Source of the DNA: Candidatus Magasanikbacteria bacterium GW2011_GWC2_37_14
GTDB lineage: Bacteria; Patescibacteriota; Patescibacteriia; Magasanikbacterales; UBA922
Reading direction: 5' to 3'
Length of the DNA stretch: 64,000 nucleotides
Assembly (NCBI GenBank): GCA_000990355.1
Contig: LBSX01000002.1
Location: 6,000-69,999 of the forward strand
A model generated the notes under the pieces. That model searched no databases. It had not been told where the DNA came from and saw only the letters and a program-made list of their open reading frames with translations. Positions 3,993 to 52,955 of this stretch are shown in pieces (within the stretch, counting starts at the first letter, position 1; each line of letters starts with the position of its first letter). Both the position numbers and the translations under genes were made by a program.

Positions 3993-6583
3993 TATATAGC
4001 AAATAAAAACCCATAACTCAAAGAAGTATAGGCCATATCTTGCCAAACAGTAAATTCATTCATATCCGGCATGCGGGCCCAAGGAGCATATTGTCGAAGG
4101 GCAGGAATATTTTTTGGGGTGGGATAAAAATTATTATACACCAAACAACCCCAAGCATCGGTAGGTTCACAATCGCCGTCATAATCTCGTGCATGGGGAC
4201 CATAAATAGGTAATCCAGGGACTGGTTTTTCTTGTTGGTCATACATAGAATTCAAATGTAGTGGAAATTCGGGATTTCTAATTCCTAATCCAGTTATCCA
4301 AGAAAGACCCAAAGGATTTTCTCCTAATTGATAATCAGCATTTAAAGAAATTGCGTCGATATATTTTTGATCTTTGGTAAAATAATATGCCATTGCAGTG
4401 CCAACAATACTTCTCATAGAGTTTGATCCCGAGCCCCAAGCAATTGCGTAATTAAAATTAGTAGAATTTTTATATTTATTTTCCATAATTTGTTCTACTT
4501 CGTCATTGCCAATTTCAATAATTCTATTTTTTACTTGTTCTTGAAAATCTCTGTCAACGTTGGTGCCATTGGCATTGCTATAACCCCAAAAAGAATAAAT
4601 ATTTGCAAACCAAGTAGGACCACGATAGGTTGGGTACAATTGTTTAAATACATTTTGATATTTTGTTTCATTGGTTAAAGCAAATAATTCTCCGGCGGCG
4701 TACATTTTTTCTCTTTCTAGTTCATTCAGTTTGTCTTCGTTACTTCTTTCTACAGGCGCTGTCGTGCCAAGGCTAGTTTGTTTTTCTGCCCAATCCCAAG
4801 CTTTCAAGGCTTTATTTTTTAAATCAGTGGCTTTGTTTTTTCCGGCGGGATAATTTTCCAAAATTCTCGCTAAATGTGCAGCTGCTCCGGCAAATTTATA
4901 AGAAGTCCATCTGTTTGGAGCATATGTCCAGTAGGGAAGTGTGTCACCCTCACATGTAGAAGAACCTGGGTGAGCATAACTCTCAACGCCAGCTCTTACT
5001 CCGCCGTCTGATTCTTGTAAAGTTTCCCATAATTTTATTCCCCATAAAGCTTCATCCAAAACATCTGGAATTTGGTTTCCACTTTCCGGAATATTTAATT
5101 GATTGTCTGTAAATTTATTAGGAAACATTTCTTGTAAGGTTGTTAAATCTTCGACAATTAGTAAATGCATTGGTCTTAAATCAAAATCACCAGCATCAAA
5201 CCAACCACCACTAATATTTATCGGGTTATTTTTGGAAGTATTTTTAGAAAATTTTTCACCAAAATCTTCCAATATATTTGTTTCAAATACTTGGTTCAGG
5301 CACATTTTATGAATCCAGTTGGTATATTTTGATTCTAGGGCTGTGCCAGCCCGTTGGTGGTACAAACCGCGAATTGCTGTATAAAAGGCTGTAAAAGCAG
5401 AATCTAGCCCTACGCTAAAGACAAGAGATCGACCAATTCCTTCTACCTCAAGATAATAATTACCTTCGTTTAAATCACTTAAATCTAATTCATATAAAAT
5501 TTCTCCACTTAGATTGTCCGATCCTAAGTTTGTTGATTTTCCCGAACTGACCAATTGTTTGGAACTGGCATTATACACTTGATAATTTAATTGTGTCGGC
5601 AATATTAAAGCACCGCCAGAACCTAACCAATAACCAACATAAGCATAGCGTTCTTTTGCTTTTAAAGAAAAACCATGTTGATTAATTTTAATAGCTTTGG
5701 CAATTTGCAAATCTTTGCCAGGCATTAAATTCCAAGAAGAAAATTGTTCATTGGAAAAATAACCAATTGTTCCGTTATAAACATATTTTTTACCTGTTGG
5801 GTTAATAAGTTCTACTGTATAATTTTGATCATTTTTTAATTCTTTAGGTAAAGTTAAATACAAAGTATGTCTTAAAACAACGTCGGCTTGGTTTTGGCCG
5901 TTATAATCTCTGTCTTCAGCATCTAATACTGCCGAAAATCGATCAATTTTTGTAGGATGAACAATATTTTTGTAATTTATATCACTAGTAGAAATAATAT
6001 TCCAATTGTTTGCATTCATTATAAAATTTAAATCAATTTCACCATCAAAAATTACTTCCGCTATTTTATTAGTAATTAGTCCAATTGAATTATTTTTTAT
6101 TACGACTTCAGAAGTAGTAAATTCACTGTCTGGATATATTTCCGAGTTGTTTATGGTTAATATTCTGTCCCAGCGATAGCCCAAATTATTAAAAGCAGTT
6201 TCATTAGCAATGTGTTTTTTTAATAAAATTCCTTTTTCACTGTATTCTAAGCGATAAACTTTATTACTATTAGCATATTTTATAATTGTAAATTCTGGGT
6301 GATGGTCAGTGTAATTTATTTCACCGGCAGTTTCGTATTTATTTAATAATTCGACATCAATATTTTCAATCCAATTCCAAGGGTATTTTAAAGAGTTAAA
6401 AATATTTTCAGATTTTATCCAATATTTTTTATTGTTCAATAATATATACACCTTTGGGTCGTTGGGAATTTTTACCAAAGCGCCATGCAGGGTGTTATTA
6501 ATAGAAAATGCTTTTGGCACAAACAATACAAAGGCAAAAACTAAGTTTAAAACAATTAAACTAAATATTTTTCTTTTATTCAT
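3992..6583 (-). CDS. secreted glycoside hydrolase family 9-like protein (endoglucanase-like) with long N-terminal beta-rich region
   Basis: Signal peptide MNKRKIFSLIVLNLVFAFVLFVPKAFS. GGWFDAGDFDLRP and DYQLGENPLGLSWITGLG resemble the GH9 catalytic signatures. Confidence 0.65.
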   Translation of the reverse strand: MNKRKIFSLIVLNLVFAFVLFVPKAFSINNTLHGALVKIPNDPKVYILLNNKKYWIKSENIFNSLKYPWNWIENIDVELLNKYETAGEINYTDHHPEFTIIKYANSNKVYRLEYSEKGILLKKHIANETAFNNLGYRWDRILTINNSEIYPDSEFTTSEVVIKNNSIGLITNKIAEVIFDGEIDLNFIMNANNWNIISTSDINYKNIVHPTKIDRFSAVLDAEDRDYNGQNQADVVLRHTLYLTLPKELKNDQNYTVELINPTGKKYVYNGTIGYFSNEQFSSWNLMPGKDLQIAKAIKINQHGFSLKAKERYAYVGYWLGSGGALILPTQLNYQVYNASSKQLVSSGKSTNLGSDNLSGEILYELDLSDLNEGNYYLEVEGIGRSLVFSVGLDSAFTAFYTAIRGLYHQRAGTALESKYTNWIHKMCLNQVFETNILEDFGEKFSKNTSKNNPINISGGWFDAGDFDLRPMHLLIVEDLTTLQEMFPNKFTDNQLNIPESGNQIPDVLDEALWGIKLWETLQESDGGVRAGVESYAHPGSSTCEGDTLPYWTYAPNRWTSYKFAGAAAHLARILENYPAGKNKATDLKNKALKAWDWAEKQTSLGTTAPVERSNEDKLNELEREKMYAAGELFALTNETKYQNVFKQLYPTYRGPTWFANIYSFWGYSNANGTNVDRDFQEQVKNRIIEIGNDEVEQIMENKYKNSTNFNYAIAWGSGSNSMRSIVGTAMAYYFTKDQKYIDAISLNADYQLGENPLGLSWITGLGIRNPEFPLHLNSMYDQQEKPVPGLPIYGPHARDYDGDCEPTDAWGCLVYNNFYPTPKNIPALRQYAPWARMPDMNEFTVWQDMAYTSLSYGFLFAI

Positions 6584-9860: not shown

Positions 9861-9865
9861 ATAAG

Positions 9866-9937
9866 CTCGGGAGGTGGGGATCGAACCCACGACCATCACG
9901 TTAACAGCGTGCCGCTCTACCGCTGAGCTACTCCCGA
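9866..9937 (-). tRNA. tRNA-Asn (anticodon GTT)
   Basis: Manual cloverleaf: acceptor TCGGGAG/CTCCCGA, D arm GCTC-AGCGGTA-GAGC, anticodon loop CTGTTAA, T arm GTGGG-TTCGATC-CCCAC. No encoded CCA. Confidence 0.9.
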
Positions 9938-9948
9938 ATATAAAATGT

Positions 9949-10077
9949 CTGTGTATTCACAGAAACTATGAACACATTAAATACCTTATACTTAAAGTGC
10001 GAAGCGGTACCACTGCCTGCCCGCCAAGCTTGCTGGTGATTGCGCCGGATGGTTGTGGTGTGAACCGAGAGGCGGGG
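9949..10077 (-). ncRNA. GC-rich structured leader or unknown RNA co-transcribed upstream of tRNA-Asn
   Basis: 129-nt GC-rich segment bracketed by 22-nt direct repeats (9927-9948 and 10078-10099) and preceded by a consensus promoter. CCCGCC/GGCGGG and other stems are present. Class not recognised. Confidence 0.35.
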
Positions 10078-10124
10078 GCTACTCCCGAATATAAATTGTT
10101 GGTATACTGTAAAATTGTGGTGAA

Positions 10125-19630: not shown

Positions 19631-20927
19631 TTTACCTAAAAAACCAAAAACAAAAAAATTAGTATATTTGGATCATGCCGCTACTACATATGTAAGTCAA
19701 GAGGTAGAAAAAGCCACAAAGCCTTTTATAACCAAGATTTTTGGGAACCCCAGTAGTTTGTATGAACTAGGTAGAATTGCTAATGGTGAATTAAATGATT
19801 GCCGACGTAAAGTGGCGGAGATTTTACACGCCCTGCCTGACAATATTATTTTTACGGGTGGTGGTAGTGAATCAGATAACTTGGCTATTTTTGGTGTTTG
19901 TAGAAAAATTGGTAAAGGTCATATTATTGCTACCAGGATAGAACATCACGCAGTGCTTTATCCTTGCCAACAATTAGAAAAAGAAGGTTTTACTGTTACT
20001 TACCTAGAACCAGATTCACAAGGTTTTATTTCACCCAAAAAAGTTTTAGCGGCAATTAAACCAGACACAATTTTGATTTCTATAATGTATGCTAATAATG
20101 AAATTGGTACTGTAGAACCAATTGCTGATATTGGTCGCGAGATTTTAAAATATCGTAAAGCCAACAATCCTTCGGCAGGCTCAGGACAAGTTCAGTATCC
20201 TATTTTTCATACCGATGCTTGCCAAGCCGGTGGAGTGCTGGAATTAGATGTAGAAAAATTACATGTGGACCTAATGACACTTAATGGTAGTAAAATTTAT
20301 GGACCAAAAGGTGTGGGTTTGCTTTACAAACGTCGTGGAGTAAATATTCAACCACTTATTTTTGGTGGTGGTCAAGAAATGAATTTGCGTAGTGGTACTG
20401 AAAATTTAGCTGGCATTGTAGGTTTTACCAAAGCTTTGGAAATTGCTCAAGAAAATCGTCACGAAGAAAATATGCGTTTAGTAGATTTGCGCAATTATTT
20501 TTTTGATCAAATACAAAAGAATATTAAAAATATTAGACTCAATGGTCCCCAACTTCACTCTGATAAAAATCAGAGTTACACTGGGCAAGCTGGTTCTGAA
20601 GTTCTAAACAGATTACCTAACAATCTAAATATTACATTTATTGATGTAGAAGGTGAGGCAATGCTTCTTTATTTAGATGCTTACGGAATTTGTTGTTCTA
20701 CTGGTTCGGCTTGTACTTCAATGTCATTAGAACCTTCACATGTTCTTACCGCTTTAGGTTTGCCCTATGAATACGCTCATGGTAGTTTAAGATTTACTTT
20801 GGGTTATTGTAATACAAAACAAGATATTGATTATGTAATGAGATACTTACCAGCAATTGTAGAAAAATTACGGGAAATGAGTCCGGTGCAGATGGGGAAA
20901 GTTCAACATGCCAAATATAAAAAATGA
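19620..20927 (+). CDS. nifS: cysteine desulfurase (NifS/IscS class)
   Basis: YLDHAATT, HTDACQA, SGTEN and the SACTS active-site Cys loop. ATG at 19620; the track start 19611 is TTG. Confidence 0.9.
   Translation: MTNNLPKKPKTKKLVYLDHAATTYVSQEVEKATKPFITKIFGNPSSLYELGRIANGELNDCRRKVAEILHALPDNIIFTGGGSESDNLAIFGVCRKIGKGHIIATRIEHHAVLYPCQQLEKEGFTVTYLEPDSQGFISPKKVLAAIKPDTILISIMYANNEIGTVEPIADIGREILKYRKANNPSAGSGQVQYPIFHTDACQAGGVLELDVEKLHVDLMTLNGSKIYGPKGVGLLYKRRGVNIQPLIFGGGQEMNLRSGTENLAGIVGFTKALEIAQENRHEENMRLVDLRNYFFDQIQKNIKNIRLNGPQLHSDKNQSYTGQAGSEVLNRLPNNLNITFIDVEGEAMLLYLDAYGICCSTGSACTSMSLEPSHVLTALGLPYEYAHGSLRFTLGYCNTKQDIDYVMRYLPAIVEKLREMSPVQMGKVQHAKYKK
20169..20191. repeat. 23-nt GC-rich element CCTTCGGCAGGCTCAGGACAAGT inside nifS
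   Basis: Near-identical to the typA copy. Encodes PSAGSGQ. Confidence 0.75.
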
Positions 20928-21024
20928 CAAATTACTAATATCTAATACCTAATGAAATGACAAATTTTAAAATTTAACATTAAGAATTTCATTAGAAATT
21001 AGTAATTAGACATTAGAAATTATT
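20928..21024. repeat. AT-rich long imperfect palindrome (nifS-nifU spacer)
   Basis: Left arm AATTACTAATATCTAAT... is mirrored by ...ATTAGAAATTAGTAATT. Same style as 24136-24262 and 31060-31181. Confidence 0.55.
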
Positions 21025-21929: not shown

Positions 21930-22649
21930 ATGGAAAATATTGGAAAACTTTATATTGTTGCCACCCCAATTGGCAATTTAGGCGACATTACTTTACGCGC
22001 TTTGGAAACATTAAAAAGTGTTGATTTTGTTTTGTGTGAAGATACCAGAGTTACCCAAAATTTACTAAATCATTTTGCTATTAAAACAAAAAGTATTTCC
22101 TACCACCAACATAGCGGTGTAGAAAAAATAAGTGAAATTATTAAATTATTAGAGACCGGTAAAAATTTAGCTCTTGTAACCGATGCTGGCACTCCCGGTA
22201 TCTCTGATCCTGGGAATTATTTGATAGCTGAAATTGTCAAAAAATGTCATGCTGAATTTATTTCAGCATCTCAGGGGATCCTGAAACCAGTTCAGGATGA
22301 CAGTATTGTACCAATCCCAGGTGCTTCGGCAGTCATTACTGCTTTATCAATTTCTGGTTTTTCAACAGATAAATTTTTATTTCTGGGTTTTCCGCCACAT
22401 AAAAAGGGTCGCAAGACGTTTTTTGAAGAATTAGCAAAAGTAGAACACACAGTTTGTTTTTATGAATCAAATCATCGAATTAAAAAATGTTTAGGAGAAT
22501 TAGCCGACGTTTTGGAAGAAGATAGACAAATGTGCGTGTGCCGTGAATTAACAAAAAAATTTGAAACTATTTATCGTGGAACAATAAAAGAAATATTAAC
22601 AAAAAATATTTCCGAAAAAGGCGAATTTGTAATAGTAATTAGTAATTAA
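21930..22649 (+). CDS. rsmI: 16S rRNA (cytidine1402-2'-O)-methyltransferase RsmI
   Basis: LYIVATPIGNLGDITLRALETL...CEDTR...DAGTPGISDPG. Contains a hairpin-element insert. Confidence 0.9.
   Translation: MENIGKLYIVATPIGNLGDITLRALETLKSVDFVLCEDTRVTQNLLNHFAIKTKSISYHQHSGVEKISEIIKLLETGKNLALVTDAGTPGISDPGNYLIAEIVKKCHAEFISASQGILKPVQDDSIVPIPGASAVITALSISGFSTDKFLFLGFPPHKKGRKTFFEELAKVEHTVCFYESNHRIKKCLGELADVLEEDRQMCVCRELTKKFETIYRGTIKEILTKNISEKGEFVIVISN
22246..22301. repeat. GTCAT...ATGAC double-hairpin element, short form, inside rsmI
   Basis: ATGCTGAA/TTCAGCAT and ATCCTGAA/TTCAGGAT hairpins bracketed by GTCAT/ATGAC. Confidence 0.85.
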
Positions 22650-22650
22650 T

Positions 22651-24135
22651 ATGAAAAATTTTTATTTAACAACTACACTTCCATATGTAAATGCCGAACC
22701 TCACATTGGTTTTGCTTTGGAAATTATTCAAGCTGATGTAATTGCTCGTTATCATAAGTTGCTAGGTGAAGAAGTAATTTTTAATACTGGTACTGATGAG
22801 CATGGTTTAAAAATATATCGTAAAGCAATAGAACTGGGTGTTGAACTACAAAAATATTGCGACGAATATGCTGCCAAGTTCGATGCTTTAAAGCAAGCCT
22901 TAAATTTAAGTTATACTCATTTTATTCGTACTACCGACCCACATCATCTCAAAGCTGCTCAGGAATTTTGGTTACGTTGTGAAAAAAATGGTGATATTTA
23001 TAAAAAGAATTATAAAGTAAAATATTGTGTAGGTTGTGAATTAGAAAAAACTGATTCCGAATTGGTAGACGATAAATGTCCAGTGCATCCAAATTTAAAT
23101 ATTGAATTAATTGAAGAAGAAAATTATTTTTTTAAATTTTCTAAATTTCAAAAGCCATTACTGGAACTTTATAAAAAGAATCCAAAATTTGTTATTCCAG
23201 CCAATCGTCAATTAGAAATAAAAAACTTTGTGGAAAAAGGTTTGGAAGATTTTAGTATTTCTAGATTAAAAGAAAAAATGCCTTGGGGTATTCCAGTGCC
23301 AAATGATGCTGATCATGTAATGTACGTTTGGTTTGATGCTCTTATAAACTATATATCTACATTAGGTTGGCCAGAAGATGAAAATAATTTTAATAATTTT
23401 TGGCCAGGAATTCAAGTAGCCGGAAAAGATAATTTACGCCAACAATCGGCAATGTGGCAAGCAATGCTGTTGTCTGCAGGGTTGCCAACGTCAAAACAGA
23501 TATTTATTCATGGTTTTATTACCTCCGAAGGACAAAAAATGAGTAAGAGTTTCGGTAATGTTGTTGAACCTTATAAAATTGTAGATAAATATGGCACTGA
23601 TGCCACGCGTTATTTCTTGCTTGGTGGTTTGCCTTCATATGAAGATGGTGATTTTTCTATTGAACGTTTTGAAGAATTTTATACTGCTCATCTTGTAAAT
23701 GGAGTAGGGAATTTATCAAGTCGAATTTTGACGATGATTGAAAAATATTCAGAATCAAAAATACCAGCTCAAATAGCAGATAACAAATATCAGTTAACAG
23801 AATTTTGGGCAAGTTATGATAAATTTATTAATGAATATAGATTTGAATCAATTGTTGAATTGGTGAATAGTCTTGTTGGCCAACTTGATGGAATGATTTC
23901 AACAGAAAAACCATGGGAAAAAGCGAAAAAAGGTGAAGATATTTCTGGTTTACTTTATCAACTAGCTGAAGGTTTGCGTCATATTGCTGTAGCACTTTTA
24001 CCAATTATTCCCGAAACTGCAGAAAAGATTTTAAAACAATTAGGCACAGAAGATACTTCGCGCGACTGGGGAAAATTAGAAGAAGGTGGTATAATAAAAA
24101 AAGGCGTGATACTTTTCCCAAGACTGGAAAAATAA
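22651..24135 (+). CDS. metG: methionine--tRNA ligase
   Basis: Class I HIGH-type motif (PHIGF) and KMSKS. CxxC knuckles present. Confidence 0.95.
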   Translation: MKNFYLTTTLPYVNAEPHIGFALEIIQADVIARYHKLLGEEVIFNTGTDEHGLKIYRKAIELGVELQKYCDEYAAKFDALKQALNLSYTHFIRTTDPHHLKAAQEFWLRCEKNGDIYKKNYKVKYCVGCELEKTDSELVDDKCPVHPNLNIELIEEENYFFKFSKFQKPLLELYKKNPKFVIPANRQLEIKNFVEKGLEDFSISRLKEKMPWGIPVPNDADHVMYVWFDALINYISTLGWPEDENNFNNFWPGIQVAGKDNLRQQSAMWQAMLLSAGLPTSKQIFIHGFITSEGQKMSKSFGNVVEPYKIVDKYGTDATRYFLLGGLPSYEDGDFSIERFEEFYTAHLVNGVGNLSSRILTMIEKYSESKIPAQIADNKYQLTEFWASYDKFINEYRFESIVELVNSLVGQLDGMISTEKPWEKAKKGEDISGLLYQLAEGLRHIAVALLPIIPETAEKILKQLGTEDTSRDWGKLEEGGIIKKGVILFPRLEK

Positions 24136-24262
24136 TTTTCATTTTACAATTTACAATTTTCAATAAATTATCAATTTTCAATTACCAATTTGGAAATTGT
24201 TTCATTGAAAATTTATTGTAAATTGATTATTGATAATTGTAAATTTTATTTTTTAATTTTTT
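24136..24262. repeat. AT-rich long imperfect palindrome (metG-cvpA spacer)
   Basis: Shares the 22-mer TTGAAAATTTATTGTAAATTGA (24205-24226) with 31141-31162 and a TTTTCAATAAATT motif with 31091-31103. Confidence 0.6.
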
Positions 24263-28640: not shown

Positions 28641-29771
28641 ATGATGATTGACACTCACTGTCATATACAATTCAATTCATATAAAGACGATTATGAAGAA
28701 GTAATAAAAAGATGCACTGAAAAGGGTATGATTTTGAATTGTGTGGGTTCACAAATTGATACTAGTAGACGAGCAGTAGAGTATGCGGAAAAGTATGAAA
28801 ATATTTATGCCACCATTGGGCTTCACCCCGTGCATTTGTTTTCCAGTGAAGTAGATGAAGAAGAAACAAAATTTAAAACGCGTGAAGAAAAGTTTGATTA
28901 TGAAGAATATAAAAAATTAGCAGAACACCCCAAAGTGATTGGCATAGGGGAGTGTGGCTTAGAATTATTTCATCTTCCAAAAGATGCTAACAAAGATGAA
29001 ATTTTGGCAAAACAAAAAGAAGGATTTTTGTTACAATACAAATTGGCACAAGAATTAGCCTTGCCAATGGTAATTCATGTACGTGATGCTTATGATGAAA
29101 TGGTAGAGTTTCTAACTGTCATTGCGAGGAGGTCAACAGCCGACGAAGCAATCCCCAGTCAGAATGGGATTGCCACACCTCGTTCGGGCGAGGTTCGCAA
29201 TGACATTTGTGGAGTAGTGCATTGTTACTCTGGTAATTGGGCTCAGGCCTCTAAATTCATTGATTTAGGCCTGTACCTAGGCTTTACTGGGATTCTAACC
29301 TATCCAACAAGAAAAACCAACCCAAAGCCTACAGAAGACCTTGTAGAGGTAGTTAAAAATTGTCCTATAGAGCGAATTTTAATCGAAACAGACGCTCCTT
29401 ATCTAGCACCGCAGAAATATCGTGGACAGCGTTGCGAGCCATGGATGGTAGAAGAAGTTGCTGTAAAAATAGCAGAAATAAAGGGAATAAGTGTAGAAGA
29501 AGTTCGAGAACAAACAGTAAAAAATGCTTTGAAATTGTTTAAAAAATTAGATATTTGGCATTTTCATACTTGTCCCCAAGCAAATCTAAAAATCCCCTTG
29601 ACCAAAGAGGGGTTTTTTAGTAAAATATGTGCGTTCTTCAATAAACAATATTCAAGAAGTATATGGCTCTTTTACCTACTGATTCCAAGGATCGTCAATA
29701 TATGTTACTTGGTTTGCGCATTGCTGGTGATTTTGGTGCTACAATTGCTGTTCCAATTGTTCTTTTTGTAA
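28641..29771 (+). CDS. tatD: TatD-family metal-dependent hydrolase (homology ends near 29550; about 75-codon unsupported C-terminal extension)
   Basis: IDTHCH, GLHP, GECGLE, VIHVRDA, HCYSG and ETDAPYL motifs. There is no in-frame stop until 29771, so the ORF overlaps atpZ. Confidence 0.8.
   Translation: MMIDTHCHIQFNSYKDDYEEVIKRCTEKGMILNCVGSQIDTSRRAVEYAEKYENIYATIGLHPVHLFSSEVDEEETKFKTREEKFDYEEYKKLAEHPKVIGIGECGLELFHLPKDANKDEILAKQKEGFLLQYKLAQELALPMVIHVRDAYDEMVEFLTVIARRSTADEAIPSQNGIATPRSGEVRNDICGVVHCYSGNWAQASKFIDLGLYLGFTGILTYPTRKTNPKPTEDLVEVVKNCPIERILIETDAPYLAPQKYRGQRCEPWMVEEVAVKIAEIKGISVEEVREQTVKNALKLFKKLDIWHFHTCPQANLKIPLTKEGFFSKICAFFNKQYSRSIWLFYLLIPRIVNICYLVCALLVILVLQLLFQLFFL
29118..29204. repeat. 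87-nt GC-rich element with 10-bp terminal inverted repeats GTCATTGCGA/TCGCAATGAC inside tatD
   Basis: Internal hairpins GCAATCCC/GGGATTGC and CCTCG/CGAGG. Encodes VIARRSTADEAIPSQNGIATPRSGEVRND. Confidence 0.85.
29594..29618 (+). terminator. hairpin plus T6 (terminator-like) overlapping the atp promoter
   Basis: CCCCT / AGGGG stem followed by TTTTTT. Confidence 0.5.
29598..29626 (+). promoter_or_regulatory. candidate atp operon promoter TTGACC-N17-TAAAAT
   Basis: TTGACC 29598-29603, TAAAAT 29621-29626, 37 nt before the atpZ ATG. Confidence 0.5.
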
Positions 29772-31059: not shown

Positions 31060-31181
31060 CGTTTTAAATTTACAATTACTCAATTTACAGTTTTCAATAA
31101 ATTTACAATTACTCAATTTTCAAATTGATAAATTGTAGGATTGAAAATTTATTGTAAATTGAAAATTAAAAATTGAAAATT
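31060..31181. repeat. AT-rich long imperfect palindrome (atpE-atpF spacer)
   Basis: TTTTCAATAAATTTACAATTACTCAA... is mirrored by ...TTGATAAATTGTAGGATTGAAAA. The 22-mer at 31141-31162 is identical to 24205-24226. Confidence 0.6.
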
Positions 31182-34082: not shown

Positions 34083-34175
34083 GTCATGCTGAATTTATTT
34101 CAGCATCTCTTCGATAGATTACTTTTTGCTAAAATAATTAAATTAAGAAAGATCCTGAAACGAGTTCAGGATGAC
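34083..34175. repeat. GTCAT...ATGAC double-hairpin element, 93-nt long form (atpA-atpG spacer)
   Basis: Hairpin stems identical to 22246-22301 and 63253-63345. The AT-rich central spacer contains TGCTAAAAT (34127-34135). Confidence 0.85.
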
Positions 34176-37399: not shown

Positions 37400-40384
37400 A
37401 TGAAAGATCTGAATTTAGAACAAAAACAAGCAGTAGAATACACCTCTGGTCCGCTTTTGATTGTCGCCGGAGCTGGTACTGGTAAAACTACAGTAATCAC
37501 CCAAAAGATTACTTTTTTGGTTAAGCAAAATTTGGCCAAACCCGAAGAAATTTTGGCTTTAACTTTTACAGAAAAGGCAGCCGGGGAGATGCAGGAGCGC
37601 GTGGATCAACTATTGGATTTGGGTTATTCAGACATGCAGATTTCAACTTTTCATGCTTTTTGTCAAAAACTTTTAGAATTTCATGGGCTAGACATTGGCT
37701 TGTCAAATCAATTTAAATTATTAACTCCCACTGATGCTTGGCTCTTGGTACGTAAAAATTTAGATAAATTTAATTTGGATTATTATCGACCCCTGGGTAA
37801 TCCTACGCGCCATATCCATGAATTAATTAAACATTTTTCTAAGTGTAAGGATGAATTAATTACGCCAGCAGAATATTTAAAATATGCGGAAGAAGTGAGT
37901 TTGGATGATGATGCCGACCCCACCCCATCCTCCCCTACAAGGGGAGGGGAACGTAAGCGTCTCACTGAAATAGCTAATGCTTATCATACTTATAATCAAC
38001 TTTTGCTGGATAATAATTGTCTGGACTTTGGTGATCTAATTTTTTATGGCCTTAAATTGTTAAAAGAACGGCCAAATATTTTAAAATTATTGCAAAATAA
38101 ATATAAATATATTTTGGTTGACGAGTTTCAAGATGTTAATTATGCACAGTATGAATTGGTAAAATTGTTTACGACTAATGGAAATCAGTTAACAGTTGTG
38201 GGAGACGATGACCAGTCAATTTACGCCTTCCGCGGAGCATCGGTTTCCAATATCTTACGTTTTAAAGATGATTTTCCTAATGCCAAAGAAATTGTTTTAA
38301 CAGAAAATTATCGTTCAGGCCAAGAAATATTAGATTTAGCCTATAAATCAATACAAAATAATAATCCCGATCGTCTAGAGATTAAATTAAATATCAATAA
38401 ACAATTAAAGTCAGTAGTTAGTAGCCTGCCTGCCGGCGAGGCAGGTCTAAAGTCTGAAGTCGAATACAAGCATTTTAATACTTCAACTGAAGAAATTAAT
38501 TTTGTAATTAATAAAATTTGTGAGATTTGTAAAGATGAATCTGTAGTTTTGTCAGATTTTGCAATTTTAATTCGCGCCAATAGTCAGGCCGAACCGTTTA
38601 TTAATGCTTTTGAAAAAGTTGGTCTGCCTTATGAGTATCTGGCTTCGTCTGGATTATATCGCCAGCCATTAATTTTAGATTGTATTAACTTTTTAAAAGT
38701 ATTGGACAACTATCACGAATCCAGTGCTATTTTTCGTTTATTACATTTACCTTTTTTAAAATTTAATCCAGATGATTTACAAAAAATAACCTATTTTTCT
38801 AAGAAAAAAAGCATTTCTTATTATGAAACTCTAAAACGTGGATTGGAAATTAATTTATCAAAAACAGGTATTGAAATAGTCAATAAATTGTTAAATATAA
38901 TAAACAGTGGCACACAAATGGCCAAGGAAAAAAAACCTATAATAATTTTATTAGATTTTTTAGAACAAAGTGGTTATTTTAAATATCTTGCCTTGGAAGA
39001 TGAACAAGGTAATAGAGAAATAATTAAACAAATTAAAGAGCTACGAAGTTTTTTTGAAGAAGTTAAACACTACGAAGAATCAGTGCCTCAAGCACGCGTG
39101 TCAGATTTTTTGGAACATTATAATTATATTTTAGAGTCTGGTGATGAAGGGCAAATGTTTAAAAATCTAGAAGAAACAGAAGCGATAAAAATTTTAACGA
39201 TTCATTCTGCCAAGGGCTTAGAATTTAAATATGTTTTTGTTGTTAACTTGGTGGAAGAACGTTTTCCTAGTCGTAAACGTGGAGAAGCTATTGAATTGCC
39301 TGTATCATTAATTAAAGAAAATCTATCAGAAGTGGATTACCATGTTAATGAAGAAAGACGTTTATTTTATGTGGCCTGTACCAGAGCCAAAGAAAAATTA
39401 TTTTTAACTAGCGCGGATGATTATGGTGGGGTGAGAAAGAAGAAAGTTAGTAGGTTTATTGATGAATTAAATTTAAGTATGGAAGCAAGGCAACAATATA
39501 ACAATGTAACTATTGACACATTGCCACATTGTCACACTGTTGACAAAAAAGATATTAATCAGTCTAAAAGTACTACAATTTTATCTGACACCTTTTCCTA
39601 CTCCCAAATCAATTCATATCTTCGCTGTCCTTATCAGTATAAATTAGCCCATGTATTAAAAATTCCTACCACAGGCAATGCTAGTTTTAGTTTTGGTTCA
39701 ACTATACATAATACTTTACAAAAATTTTATAACCAGGTTATTGAATTAAATAGTATTAAACAAGATTCGTTGTTTGTTCAACATACTACAACTAAACAAG
39801 TTGGAGAAATAAAAGTTCCAACATTGGATAATTTACTAAAATTTTATAAAGATTCTTGGCAAGATGACTGGTATCAAAATAAACAACAACGAGAGGAATT
39901 TTACAAAAAAGGACATAAAATATTGGAAATATTTTATTCTTCAGAGCAAAAAAATGGCTGGACTGTGCCAGTTTTTCTAGAGAGCGGTTTTAAAATTAAA
40001 ATAGGAGATTATTTTATAAATGGACGCATAGATCATATTGATAAATTATCGGCTGGTGCTTTAAAGATTATTGATTATAAAACCGGTAAAGCTAAAGAAA
40101 AAGTAGTTGGCGATGATAAAAATCAACTGCTAATTTATCAAATTGCCGCGGAAATTTTACCTGAATACAAAAATATTGGCCCAGTTAGTGAATTAACTTT
40201 TTATTATTTAGAAGAAAATCTTACAACGTCTTTTGTTGGCGACGATAAAGACAAAACAAAACTACAAGAAAAAATTATCAAAACAATTGGGGAAATAAAC
40301 GATTCTAATTTTGTTGCCACACCCAGTGAACACATTTGTCAGCATTGTGATTTTAGAGACATTTGTCAGTTTAGACAATTATAA
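37400..40384 (+). CDS. UvrD/PcrA-type superfamily 1 helicase fused to a C-terminal PD-(D/E)XK nuclease with Cys4 (AddA/AddB-like)
   Basis: AGAGTGKT, VDEFQD, GDDDQSIYAFRGA, TIHSAKGLEF and VACTRAK helicase motifs. IIDYKTGK, QLLIYQ and RCPYQY...CQHCDFRDIC nuclease/Fe-S staple motifs. ATG at 37400. Confidence 0.85.
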   Translation: MKDLNLEQKQAVEYTSGPLLIVAGAGTGKTTVITQKITFLVKQNLAKPEEILALTFTEKAAGEMQERVDQLLDLGYSDMQISTFHAFCQKLLEFHGLDIGLSNQFKLLTPTDAWLLVRKNLDKFNLDYYRPLGNPTRHIHELIKHFSKCKDELITPAEYLKYAEEVSLDDDADPTPSSPTRGGERKRLTEIANAYHTYNQLLLDNNCLDFGDLIFYGLKLLKERPNILKLLQNKYKYILVDEFQDVNYAQYELVKLFTTNGNQLTVVGDDDQSIYAFRGASVSNILRFKDDFPNAKEIVLTENYRSGQEILDLAYKSIQNNNPDRLEIKLNINKQLKSVVSSLPAGEAGLKSEVEYKHFNTSTEEINFVINKICEICKDESVVLSDFAILIRANSQAEPFINAFEKVGLPYEYLASSGLYRQPLILDCINFLKVLDNYHESSAIFRLLHLPFLKFNPDDLQKITYFSKKKSISYYETLKRGLEINLSKTGIEIVNKLLNIINSGTQMAKEKKPIIILLDFLEQSGYFKYLALEDEQGNREIIKQIKELRSFFEEVKHYEESVPQARVSDFLEHYNYILESGDEGQMFKNLEETEAIKILTIHSAKGLEFKYVFVVNLVEERFPSRKRGEAIELPVSLIKENLSEVDYHVNEERRLFYVACTRAKEKLFLTSADDYGGVRKKKVSRFIDELNLSMEARQQYNNVTIDTLPHCHTVDKKDINQSKSTTILSDTFSYSQINSYLRCPYQYKLAHVLKIPTTGNASFSFGSTIHNTLQKFYNQVIELNSIKQDSLFVQHTTTKQVGEIKVPTLDNLLKFYKDSWQDDWYQNKQQREEFYKKGHKILEIFYSSEQKNGWTVPVFLESGFKIKIGDYFINGRIDHIDKLSAGALKIIDYKTGKAKEKVVGDDKNQLLIYQIAAEILPEYKNIGPVSELTFYYLEENLTTSFVGDDKDKTKLQEKIIKTIGEINDSNFVATPSEHICQHCDFRDICQFRQL
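37916..37953. repeat. GC-rich module CCCCACCCC plus CCTCCCCT-aca-AGGGGAGG inside the helicase gene
   Basis: Same hairpin as 1443-1463. Encodes DPTPSSPTRGGE. Confidence 0.75.
38422..38449. repeat. GC-rich module TAGCCTGCCTGCCGG...GGCAGG inside the helicase gene
   Basis: The 15-nt core TAGCCTGCCTGCCGG is identical to 1465-1479. Encodes SLPAGEAGL. Confidence 0.75.
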
Positions 40385-52184: not shown

Positions 52185-52955
52185 ATGACTAAAAAAACTT
52201 TGATAATTCTACCTGGATGGGGTGGAAACAAAGAAACGTGGAAAAATTTTGCAGAACTTGCGAGCAAAGATTTTGACGTACATATTATTGAATTGCCGTG
52301 TTTTGGCGATGAACCCTGCCCAAAAACAGTTTGGGATATTGAAGATTATGTTGAGTTTGTTAAAAATAAACTTCTTGAGCGTCATTCCCGCGAAGGCGGG
52401 AATCTTAAATTGGTGAAAGATCCCCGTTTTCACGGGGATGACGCAGTGCTATTAGGTCACTCATTTGGTGGACAAGTAGCCACGGTCTTTGCTTCCAAAT
52501 ACCCAGAGATGATTGAAAAACTTATTTTAACAGCACCGGCTGTTTTCCGCCCTAAAAAAACTTTTCGACGAGTAGTTTTCAATATTGGAGCAAAATTTGG
52601 TAAATTAATTTTTAAAATTCCTTGGATAGAAAATGGTTCCCTCTGGGCCGAAAAAATTTATCACCAAGCAATTGGTGCCAAAGATTATCATGATAGTTCG
52701 GGCATTAAACGAGAAATTTTTAAAAATATTATTCGTCAAGACAGGGGAGTGGAAGCTAGTAAAATTACTATACCAACTCTAATTGTTTGGGGTACAATGG
52801 ATGGTTATCTACCAGTTGCTGATGCTAATCAATTGAATAAATTAATAAAAAACTCTAAACTTGAAATAGTTAATGGTGGAAGACATGGATTACACCTACA
52901 AATACCAGAAAAACTTTTATATTTAATAAAATCTTTTCTTGAAAAAAATATATGA
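52185..52955 (+). CDS. alpha/beta hydrolase
   Basis: GHSFGG nucleophile elbow. Contains a hairpin-element insert just upstream of it. Confidence 0.75.
   Translation: MTKKTLIILPGWGGNKETWKNFAELASKDFDVHIIELPCFGDEPCPKTVWDIEDYVEFVKNKLLERHSREGGNLKLVKDPRFHGDDAVLLGHSFGGQVATVFASKYPEMIEKLILTAPAVFRPKKTFRRVVFNIGAKFGKLIFKIPWIENGSLWAEKIYHQAIGAKDYHDSSGIKREIFKNIIRQDRGVEASKITIPTLIVWGTMDGYLPVADANQLNKLIKNSKLEIVNGGRHGLHLQIPEKLLYLIKSFLEKNI
52379..52444. repeat. GCGTCAT...ATGACGC double-hairpin element inside the hydrolase gene
   Basis: ATTCCCGC/GCGGGAAT and ATCCCCG/CGGGGAT hairpins. Same architecture as the rsmI element but with different stems. Confidence 0.85.

Follow-up and report, generated by a model that had tools for sequence, protein, structure and literature searches.

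One type of short tagged hairpin repeat has been published under several names, as the CGTC-1 repetitive extragenic palindrome (REP), the dRS3 or NTS repeat of Neisseria, the Ssn-related motif (SRM) and the Rickettsia palindromic element RPE-6. Here we consider a 66-nucleotide (nt) element at positions 52379-52444 of a 64-kb stretch of DNA (the window, i.e. the whole stretch that was analysed) from Candidatus Magasanikbacteria bacterium GW2011_GWC2_37_14, a member of the Patescibacteria or Candidate Phyla Radiation (CPR), where it lies within a gene encoding an alpha/beta hydrolase. We could show that it is a gene-less pair of CGTC-tagged REP hairpins with the tags outward, a kind of element that has already been described. 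What is new here is modest, namely the host phylum and a hydrolase loop with recurring, different hairpin inserts.

Described repeats of this type

In the survey of CGTC-tagged REPs by Di Nocera, De Gregorio and Rocco (2013, BMC Genomics 14:522; PMC3733652), a unit consists of a CGTC tag (TGTC and CCTC being allowed), a stem (8 bp in families 1 and 2) whose first pair is A-T and whose second is T-A, a loop of 4 nt in family 1 and 5 nt in families 2-4, and a short unpaired tail, mostly CCA. The units occur mainly as HH dimers, in which the tags are outside, heterodimers are frequent and intragenic copies occur; those of CGTC-1 in Rickettsia conorii encode the peptides VIPAKAGI and SFPRKRES and the dimer SFLRKQES...LDSRFRGND (Additional file 3 of that survey). 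The same authors equated CGTC-1 with Neisseria dRS3 and Rickettsia RPE-6, and found neither a dedicated transposase for the CGTC repeats nor, in any species, a REP-associated tyrosine transposase (RAYT) flanked by CGTC units.

A nuclease acting on such hairpins was described by Chenal et al. (2025, Nat Commun 16:2388; PMC11893778). SsnA, a small GIY-YIG nuclease of the cd10448 group, binds the NTS hairpin and cuts beside it, on single-stranded DNA (ssDNA) only and not on double-stranded DNA or RNA. Cleavage depends chiefly on three bases located upstream of the palindrome and binding most on the C just after it, and activity is abolished when the stem sequence is altered with the hairpin preserved. 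The NTS consensus is CGTCATTCCCGCGMAVGCGGGAATCYRG, with one mismatch allowed by the authors, and the SRM motif is HGTCWYN(0-2)YYVSBRHN(0-5)WNVSBRGN(0-2)RNCYNB. SRMs are found near 71% of ssn homologues, and ssn genes are flanked by hairpins in the order NTS-ssnA-NTS.

The element is a pair of CGTC-tagged hairpins

The DNA read comprised the window and 7.8 kb past its left end, about 72 kb of the source genome, and the comparison set comprised the window and 80 related loci that encode an orthologue of the hydrolase (1.37 Mb in total). On the plus strand, the element reads GCGTCAT-TCCCGC-gaag-GCGGGA-ATCT-taaattggtgaaa-GATCCCCG-ttttca-CGGGGATGACGC. A first-pass annotation of this DNA had given its sequence and coordinates exactly; the parse of its second hairpin could be improved to ATCCCCGT-tttc-ACGGGGAT, 8 bp with a 4-nt loop, which is the geometry of the first hairpin (stem ATTCCCGC/GCGGGAAT, loop gaag). 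The element (55% GC, 22 in-frame codons) is an HH heterodimer, in which the left unit, CGTC-ATTCCCGC-gaag-GCGGGAAT-C-tta, occupies 52380-52407 on the plus strand and the right unit, CGTC-ATCCCCGT-gaaa-ACGGGGAT-C-ttt, occupies 52416-52443 on the minus strand. Between these two 28-nt units lies an AT-rich spacer centre (52408-52415), the full stretch between the post-stem C positions being TTAAATTGGTGAAA. A 28-nt unit is repeated in inverse orientation to make up the two halves, so that the whole element is a near-palindrome, and the stems of the halves differ at positions 3 and 8.

In tag, stem, loop and dimer type, the element is a CGTC-tagged REP heterodimer: both units start with CGTC, both stems are perfect at 8 bp, the loops gaag and tttc are as in family 1, and the tags are outside with unlike stems. 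The tails are C-TTA and C-TTT; CCA is found instead in the related loci L004, L017, L024, L060 and L071. Compared with the NTS consensus, the left unit matches at 26 of 28 positions, both mismatches being the last two positions of the 3' tail, and it does not match the SRM motif; that motif has a single exact match in the window, the right unit, where shuffled sequences give an expectation of 0.06. The dRS3 core, ATTCCC-N8-GGGAAT, is also the core of the left unit. Translations of the element, VIPAKAGI, SFPRRRES and D.R..G[DN]D, are the peptides listed for CGTC-1 in R. conorii. An Rfam scan, in which only tRNA reached the gathering threshold, gave no family matching the element; literature searches found nothing on its peptide strings and nothing relevant on REPs in CPR bacteria.

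As RNA, the element folds into one long imperfect hairpin of -42.5 kcal/mol, against -19.4 +/- 3.1 for shuffles (n=200; z -7.36, equalled by none of the 200). The DNA fold, of -21.2 kcal/mol (z -5.92, reached by no shuffle), consists of two 8-bp hairpins closed by a GCGTCAT/ATGACGC stem. Its GC content of 55% compares with 27-37% along the window and 32% for the genome, and its spacer is of the TT..AA type found in other low-GC hosts, high-GC hosts having CAG..CTG. The element is joined to its flanks as GAGC/GTCAT...ATGAC/GCAG; it has inverted ends of 28 nt, and no direct repeat flanks it as the target-site duplication of a classical MITE, or miniature inverted-repeat transposable element, would.

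Insertion in the hydrolase gene

The host gene (52185-52955, plus strand), located between serS and a Mur-ligase gene, encodes a 256-aa alpha/beta hydrolase, which is annotated as a BioH-like carboxylesterase and is 100% identical to a protein of Candidatus Magasanikbacteria bacterium GW2011_GWC2_37_14 annotated as 'Carboxylesterase BioH'. The element is in frame in this open reading frame (ORF) and supplies residues 66-87, RHSREGGNLKLVKDPRFHGDD(A), and the nucleophile elbow G-H-S93-F-G-G begins four residues further on. Two spurious ORFs end or begin in its other frames, which read ..VIPAKAGILNW and ..KIPAFAGMT... Both points, the in-frame insert just before the elbow and the IPAKAGI/IPAFAGMT-type peptides of spurious ORFs, had been made in the first-pass annotation and hold.

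The distance from LPCFG to GHS is 54 aa in this protein and 36-44 aa in 64 of the 75 loci of the comparison set where it could be measured. In an alignment of 34 orthologues, where Ser93, Asp206 and His234 are invariant, the position of the insert is the sole large length-variable region besides the N-terminus. From these sequence comparisons we could show that the 22 codons at 52379-52444 are, relative to most orthologues, an insert. In the AlphaFold model (mean pLDDT 83.6 overall), it is a low-confidence loop between helix 52-70 and strand 87-92, with a mean pLDDT of 53 for residues 71-80; judging by the standard alpha/beta-hydrolase topology, this loop would be found at the nucleophile strand's N-terminal end, facing away from the active site.

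The same loop carries inserts in L001, L002, L003, L004, L006, L010, L014, L023, L025 and L073, nearly all of them palindromic (that of L073 barely) and of different types. The insert of L004 has one CGTC unit and a lone ATGAC, that of L001 is a nested composite whose left tag is degenerate and whose right end is ATGACG, that of L003 has kept the right tag, those of L002 and L006 look decayed, and those of L010, L014, L023 and L025 are unrelated GC-rich hairpins. An (N/D)D end, which is what the ATGAC tag encodes in the frame used at 52379, is found in 10 of the 21 insert-bearing proteins of the alignment. In a tree for which the loop was masked, genes with a filled loop are interspersed with empty ones (filled P0006 beside empty P0014; likewise P0003-P0011 and P0010-P0012), which implies several gains, several losses or both. 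This recurrence fits targeted insertion and selective filtering of insertions to one tolerant loop equally well.

Other repeats were seen at the same loop. Heptamer tandem repeats, CTCCGAA x4 (encoding SELRTPNSEL) and GCCGAAA x3, occur there in empty orthologues (L012:10190-10225, L007:10190-10215 and L055), and the peptide ELRTPNSEL recurs in distant orthologues; the hairpin inserts of L023 (1620-1700) and L025 (10180-10250) are flanked by the direct repeats AAATCTGAAAT and TCCGAAATC. These repeats could be a slippage-prone target or a footprint.

The junction between serS and the hydrolase gene is variable in general: in 20 of 72 syntenic loci, 150-1457 bp are inserted in the spacer. We rejected this junction as a general hotspot of mobile elements, as the inserted genes are ordinary ones (NUDIX, asparaginase-like, membrane proteins) but for two RAYTs. 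These (L070:9389-9969 and L075:7545-8200) are 174-aa RAYT-like Y1 HUH transposase genes (phmmer E down to 2e-19), and that of L070 is flanked by inverted GTAA-CTCAGGTC-tgaa-GACCTGAG repeats, a classical REPtron in a Patescibacteria genome. In another Patescibacteria genome (L017:10726-10805), a CGTC tags-outward heterodimer (ATTCCGGC, ATTGCGGG) directly follows the stop codon of the hydrolase gene, so that hairpin elements are found at several positions around this gene.

A family of dimers in the window

The window contains five CGTC-type dimers, all with intact stems, three of them in frame within genes. The one at 22246-22301 is a tags-outward dimer with 5-nt loops, left stem ATGCTGAA and right stem ATCCTGAA, in frame in rsmI, where it encodes CHAEFISASQGILKPVQDD. 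Dimers of the same type lie at 34083-34175, between the genes for ATP synthase alpha and gamma (atpG), and at 63253-63345, intergenic near the right end of the window (upstream of clpB in the first-pass annotation), and in each of the three copies of this second family the left stem is ATGCTGAA and the right stem ATCCTGAA. Another dimer, also CGTC-tagged and tags-outward but of a different body, TGTC-ATTGCGAGG...CGCAATGACA, is found at 29116-29212, in frame in the TatD-like ORF 28641-29771, and encodes VIARRSTADEAIPSQNGIATPRSGEVRNDI. The tag of these other dimers is TGTC; those at 22246, 34083 and 63253 resemble CGTC family 2 in their 5-nt loops, and this 5-nt-loop family gave no match to the SRM motif. 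The two ends of a dimer differ at stem position 3, with T/C at 52379 and G/C in the second family.

We searched the comparison set for perfect 8-bp stems opening with AT; this screen replaced a first, loose hairpin screen, which was dropped because control pentamers scored alike. Among 51 such hairpins, 18 carry GTC on exactly one side, against about 1.6 by chance, and 17 of these 18 carry C on the opposite side. Across 17 aligned units the invariant columns are GTC, AT...AT and the C after the stem, and the six inner stem positions show at least ten different self-complementary sequences. A covariation count (A2) gave 100% pairing with both sides changed in 5 of 7 pairs, a figure that is inflated since the seeds were picked as perfect hairpins; we relied instead on the association of tag and hairpin and on independent matches. 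A covariance model of the 17 units gave 34 matches at E <= 10 in the 1.37 Mb, 18 of them at E < 0.01.

The element at 52379 and the rsmI/atpG/clpB dimers are therefore one family, as both have the tag, a stem of 8 bp closed by AT, and ATC following it. This is the architecture that the first-pass annotation had seen them share, with stems that differ between elements, are each self-complementary and resemble each other within one element; the perfect 8-bp stems agree. It had allowed that the two stem classes might prove to be unrelated, with chance resemblance of their termini, and the tag, stem geometry and post-stem C, which they share far more often than chance would allow, speak against this. 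Its conserved termini, GTCAT...ATGAC, are not significant by themselves, since GTCAT-N40-65-ATGAC has two matches against 0.78 expected, and become so in combination with the hairpin, as the 18 tagged hairpins show.

A candidate partner nuclease

Unsupervised clustering of every ORF lying up to 2.5 kb from a dimer in the fetched contigs yielded a GIY-YIG protein of about 100 aa (PF01541). TctC-like binding proteins and ABC ATPases, which came from the same clustering, were rejected as host context of orthologous loci and not partners. In L115, L165 and L206, the GIY-YIG gene is placed precisely between a pair of tags-outward CGTC-1 units, and it is bracketed likewise in the low-GC contigs L219 and L220, where the units have CTTTC tails, as those of the window; at stem position 3, L165, L206 and L220 have C/T. 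This layout of a gene between hairpins was recovered independently and matches the NTS-ssnA-NTS order of PMC11893778. In addition, the invariant columns of the 17-unit alignment are the positions critical for cleavage and binding by SsnA.

Using a hidden Markov model of the recovered Ssn proteins, we found a match in L032, a metagenome-assembled genome labelled Parcubacteria whose contig, of Magasanikbacteria type, has serS-hydrolase-murF synteny, serS being 71% identical. The match, the C-terminal 61 residues of an Ssn-like gene (20512-20694, minus strand), adjoins a CGTC unit, TGTC-ATTCTGAACGCAGTGAAGAAT-CTC, at 20454-20484. A protein search with this fragment returned four proteins only; its closest homologues are P0241 and P0242 (75-82% identity), whose genes lie between tags-outward units with CTTTC tails and C/T at stem position 3.

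With regard to the hosts of these relatives, the L032 fragment is 82% identical to P0241 on L220, a 41%-GC contig with the gene for inosine monophosphate dehydrogenase adjacent, and a close Ssn homologue on L219 has genes for inosine monophosphate dehydrogenase, adenylosuccinate synthase and pyridoxal phosphate synthase as neighbours. This gene set, which seems unlikely for CPR bacteria, hints that the nuclease-hairpin unit may have been transferred recently between distant hosts.

Distribution of the heterodimer

The distribution of the heterodimer is cosmopolitan. A metagenome scan for ATTCCCGC and ATCCCCG gave at least 124 matches, and at least 120 contigs have ATTCCCGC on the left paired with ATCCCCGY on the right. 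Among the matches listed, the GC content of the flanks spans 0.31-0.72 (median 0.63). The low-GC hosts L108, L124, L133 and L149 have TT...AA spacers like that of the 52379 element, and dimers of low-GC contigs are often within long ORFs, that of L149, for example, encoding RHSREGGNLKKRKQDPRLRGDDE; similarity to the window and the related loci was uninformative as to whether these low-GC matches come from CPR bacteria. A scan of viral contigs with the variable stem positions left open found 17 dimers, ten ATTCCCGC+ATCCCCGC heterodimers, seven ATTCCCGC homodimers and no ATCCCCGC homodimer, so that the dimer behaves as a unit and the difference between its two halves is a conserved property. A soil metagenome contig (L143:3176-4754) has at least five CGTC-1 heterodimers in 1.6 kb around a GIY-YIG gene (4272-4592), an array resembling those of the Neisseria intergenic mosaic elements (NIME).

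Origin and maintenance of the element

We consider it probable that the element is a non-autonomous CGTC dimer which was spread by an Ssn-type process acting on ssDNA and has been kept in a tolerant loop. When either DNA strand is single-stranded, one of the two units would fold into a hairpin of 8 bp, closed by AT, with (C/T)GTC ahead of it and C behind. By analogy with SsnA, nucleases of the Ssn family would bind such a hairpin and cleave the strand a few bases to the 5' side of the tag. The short dimer most likely derives from hairpin-ssn-hairpin relatives, as a MITE or a REPIN does from its parent, and would be copied in trans by Ssn-dependent ssDNA breakage and repair. The present copy uses one of the element's two open frames and would lie in a surface loop across the sheet from the catalytic triad, and so would have been kept as 22 extra codons. 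Compact CPR genomes are nearly without spacer DNA, so that copies would persist mainly where they are harmless. The first-pass annotation had proposed selection or propagation acting on a folded DNA or RNA form: the known action of Ssn on ssDNA hairpins favours the DNA, and SsnA does not interact with RNA. Its idea of a conserved structure with co-varying stem sequence stands in so far as at least ten self-complementary stems were found; the SsnA stem mutants indicate that recognition is not purely structural, and because a changed stem abolishes SsnA activity, the different stem classes more likely mark specificity pairs of nuclease and repeat than free compensatory drift.

Several observations weigh against this explanation. 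The window and the 7.8 kb past its left end yielded neither an Ssn nor a RAYT ORF, and the 7.8 kb no new units either, so that activity of the element in this genome is unproven; contigs overlapping the right end of the window stop inside it. The role demonstrated for Ssn, which was shown to bind and cut, is the limitation of transformation and not transposition (PMC11893778). The window has only one copy of the 52379 stem class, and CGTC units are sparse in the related loci, eight of the 18 matches at E < 0.01 coming from the window itself. The left-unit tail, CTTA, departs from that of NTS and SRM. Mobility of this copy is deduced from orthologues of at most 73% identity, as no empty-site allele from a near-identical genome was available. 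Finally, deletion of the 22 codons in silico leaves 33 residues between LPCFG and GHS, some 3-5 fewer than in any empty orthologue; the original event was therefore not a clean insertion, or it was followed by a deletion.

Some of these observations would also suit a fossil copy, i.e. a CGTC/SRM dimer present by descent in a genome that has no cognate enzyme, inert and tolerated by the loop. The lack of an Ssn or RAYT gene in the 72 kb read, the single copy in the window, the off-consensus tail and the decayed versions of such inserts in the orthologues L002, L003 and L006 all agree with this possibility, to which we give a minor though real chance. It fits less well with two perfect 8-bp stems in a 55%-GC element of a 32%-GC genome, which suggest recent arrival or maintenance, with the intact stems of all five dimers in the window and with the Ssn-like gene on a related CPR contig. 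A bolder proposal, which we regard as unlikely, is that the hairpin-ssn-hairpin unit is a live mobile element of CPR bacteria driven by its GIY-YIG nuclease, that its gene-less dimers preferably land in or beside resident hairpins and that the hydrolase loop has turned into a landing site which renews itself by repeated gain, nesting, replacement and loss of inserts; in that case, the nuclease would tell the left end from the right by the one-base difference at stem position 3 (T/C or G/C).

The units might instead be targets of a site-specific recombinase, as dRS3 is for the recombinase of Neisseria filamentous phages, with turnover of the loop by recombination between repeats. The different hairpin inserts at the same codon position of many orthologues, 10 of 21 ending in (N/D)D in the same frame, could be read in this way, but the pattern is explained equally by selection filtering insertions to one tolerant loop, and a non-exhaustive search of the window showed neither such a recombinase nor a prophage; we find this explanation improbable. 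Slightly more doubtful still is a REPIN, a dimer mobilised by a RAYT (Y1 HUH transposase) as are the GTAG-tagged REP doublets. The architecture of an inverted-hairpin doublet is identical and RAYT genes are present in Magasanikbacteria between serS and the hydrolase gene (L070, 9431-9955, and L075), but the L070 RAYT has its GTAA repeats and not CGTC units as flanks, CGTC flanks have been found for no RAYT of any species (PMC3733652), and phmmer with eight RAYT sequences gave no match in the window or in the 120 CGTC-1-bearing metagenome contigs listed. Least of all do we expect a module selected by the host, either an RNA hairpin (attenuator, stabiliser or terminator), for which the very stable RNA fold and the ability of REPs elsewhere to stabilise or terminate transcripts (PMC3733652) might speak, or a 21-residue peptide giving the hydrolase a new property, since the element lies within an intact ORF, matches no Rfam family and encodes what is modelled as a low-confidence loop, and since most orthologues lack the insert and others have unrelated sequences in its place, with filled and empty genes interleaved on the tree, while the same DNA unit is found between genes and in unrelated genes across phyla.

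Two other candidates were tried and rejected: an intrinsic terminator, as the element is inside an ORF and a terminator scan found no terminator-like site there, and an IS200/IS605-derived palindrome-associated transposable element (PATE), which needs direct, same-strand end hairpins without terminal inverted repeats, whereas the units here are inverted.

Other repeats of the window

A second kind of palindrome, GTAG-tagged CCTGCC hairpins often beside CCCTCCCCT hairpins, is found at 1436-1507, 38406-38467, 61275-61361 and 62536-62685. The last of these, a 150-nt composite (-80 kcal/mol), is in frame in a WecG/TagA-like glycosyltransferase ORF (62016-62888, minus strand), to which it adds about 45 residues. 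At 37886-37969, a CCTCCCCT-aca-AGGGGAGG hairpin lies in a putative UvrD/PcrA-type helicase gene (assigned from a nearby translated motif only); REPs are often found in repair-helicase genes (PMC3733652). A GC-rich stretch of 106 nt (9989-10094) beside tRNA-Asn (9865-9937, minus strand) ends in a repeat, CTACTCCCGAATATAAA, of the sequence spanning the 5' end of the tRNA gene into its flank, and may be an integration scar or att site. AT-rich inverted repeats with arms of 38-52 nt, 71-79% complementary, occur at 20920-21024, 24128-24251 and 31082-31167; they are composed of TTTACAATTTTCAAT-like motifs and form a separate repeat family.

Implications

These data extend the CGTC/NTS-SRM hairpin family, an Ssn-like gene and a RAYT gene to the Patescibacteria. 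They account for odd GC-rich 'extra loops' in CPR proteins and for spurious ORFs with VIPAKAGI or IPAFAGMT, and such stretches should be masked as repeat-derived and not called new domains. CPR genomes of about 1 Mb offer a small search space for the mechanism by which the repeats spread, a question that was open in 2013 and partly addressed in 2025, and the hydrolase loop, with its recurrent use, offers a handy natural case in which gains and losses could be dated.

Comparison with known systems

Neisseria dRS3/NIME arrays share with the left unit an identical core, but here a single intragenic dimer is found, with neither an RS-separated array nor an associated filamentous prophage seen. REPINs and the bacterial interspersed mosaic elements (BIME) propagated via RAYTs are likewise inverted-hairpin doublets, non-autonomous and able to form one long or two short hairpins; by contrast, the tag here is GTC and not GTAG, no RAYT is associated, and the RAYTs of related genomes have their own REPs.

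The NTS/SRM-Ssn system of Chenal et al. (2025) is closer, as the motif matches, the SsnA-critical positions are invariant and relatives have the hairpin-ssn-hairpin layout. It differs in that the 72 kb read of this genome showed no ssn gene, although an Ssn-like one adjoins a CGTC unit on L032, and in having a published role, the limitation of natural transformation in Neisseria; the published screen covered RefSeq reference and representative genomes, and CPR bacteria are absent from the main text (PMC11893778).

The CGTC-1 HH heterodimers of Di Nocera et al. (2013) agree with the element in tag, 8-bp stem, 4-nt loop and unpaired tail, in having the tags outside and partners slightly unlike in the stem, and in intragenic copies encoding the same peptides. 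Here the tail is CTT or CTTTC instead of the usual CCA, the copy number is low and the host belongs to the Patescibacteria, whereas Proteobacteria, Chlorobi, Bacteroidetes, Spirochaetes and Thermotogae are listed in PMC3733652. Rickettsia palindromic elements (RPE-6 being CGTC-1 and RPE-4 being CGTC-4) also come from another phylum, their dimers in R. conorii encode 29-33 residues in comparison with 66 nt and a 14-nt spacer here, and the left unit is read here in a different frame. The hairpin unit of RPE-6 is nevertheless the same, and in both cases GC-rich palindromes lie in frame in conserved genes of an AT-rich, reduced genome, where they are tolerated as extra peptide loops.

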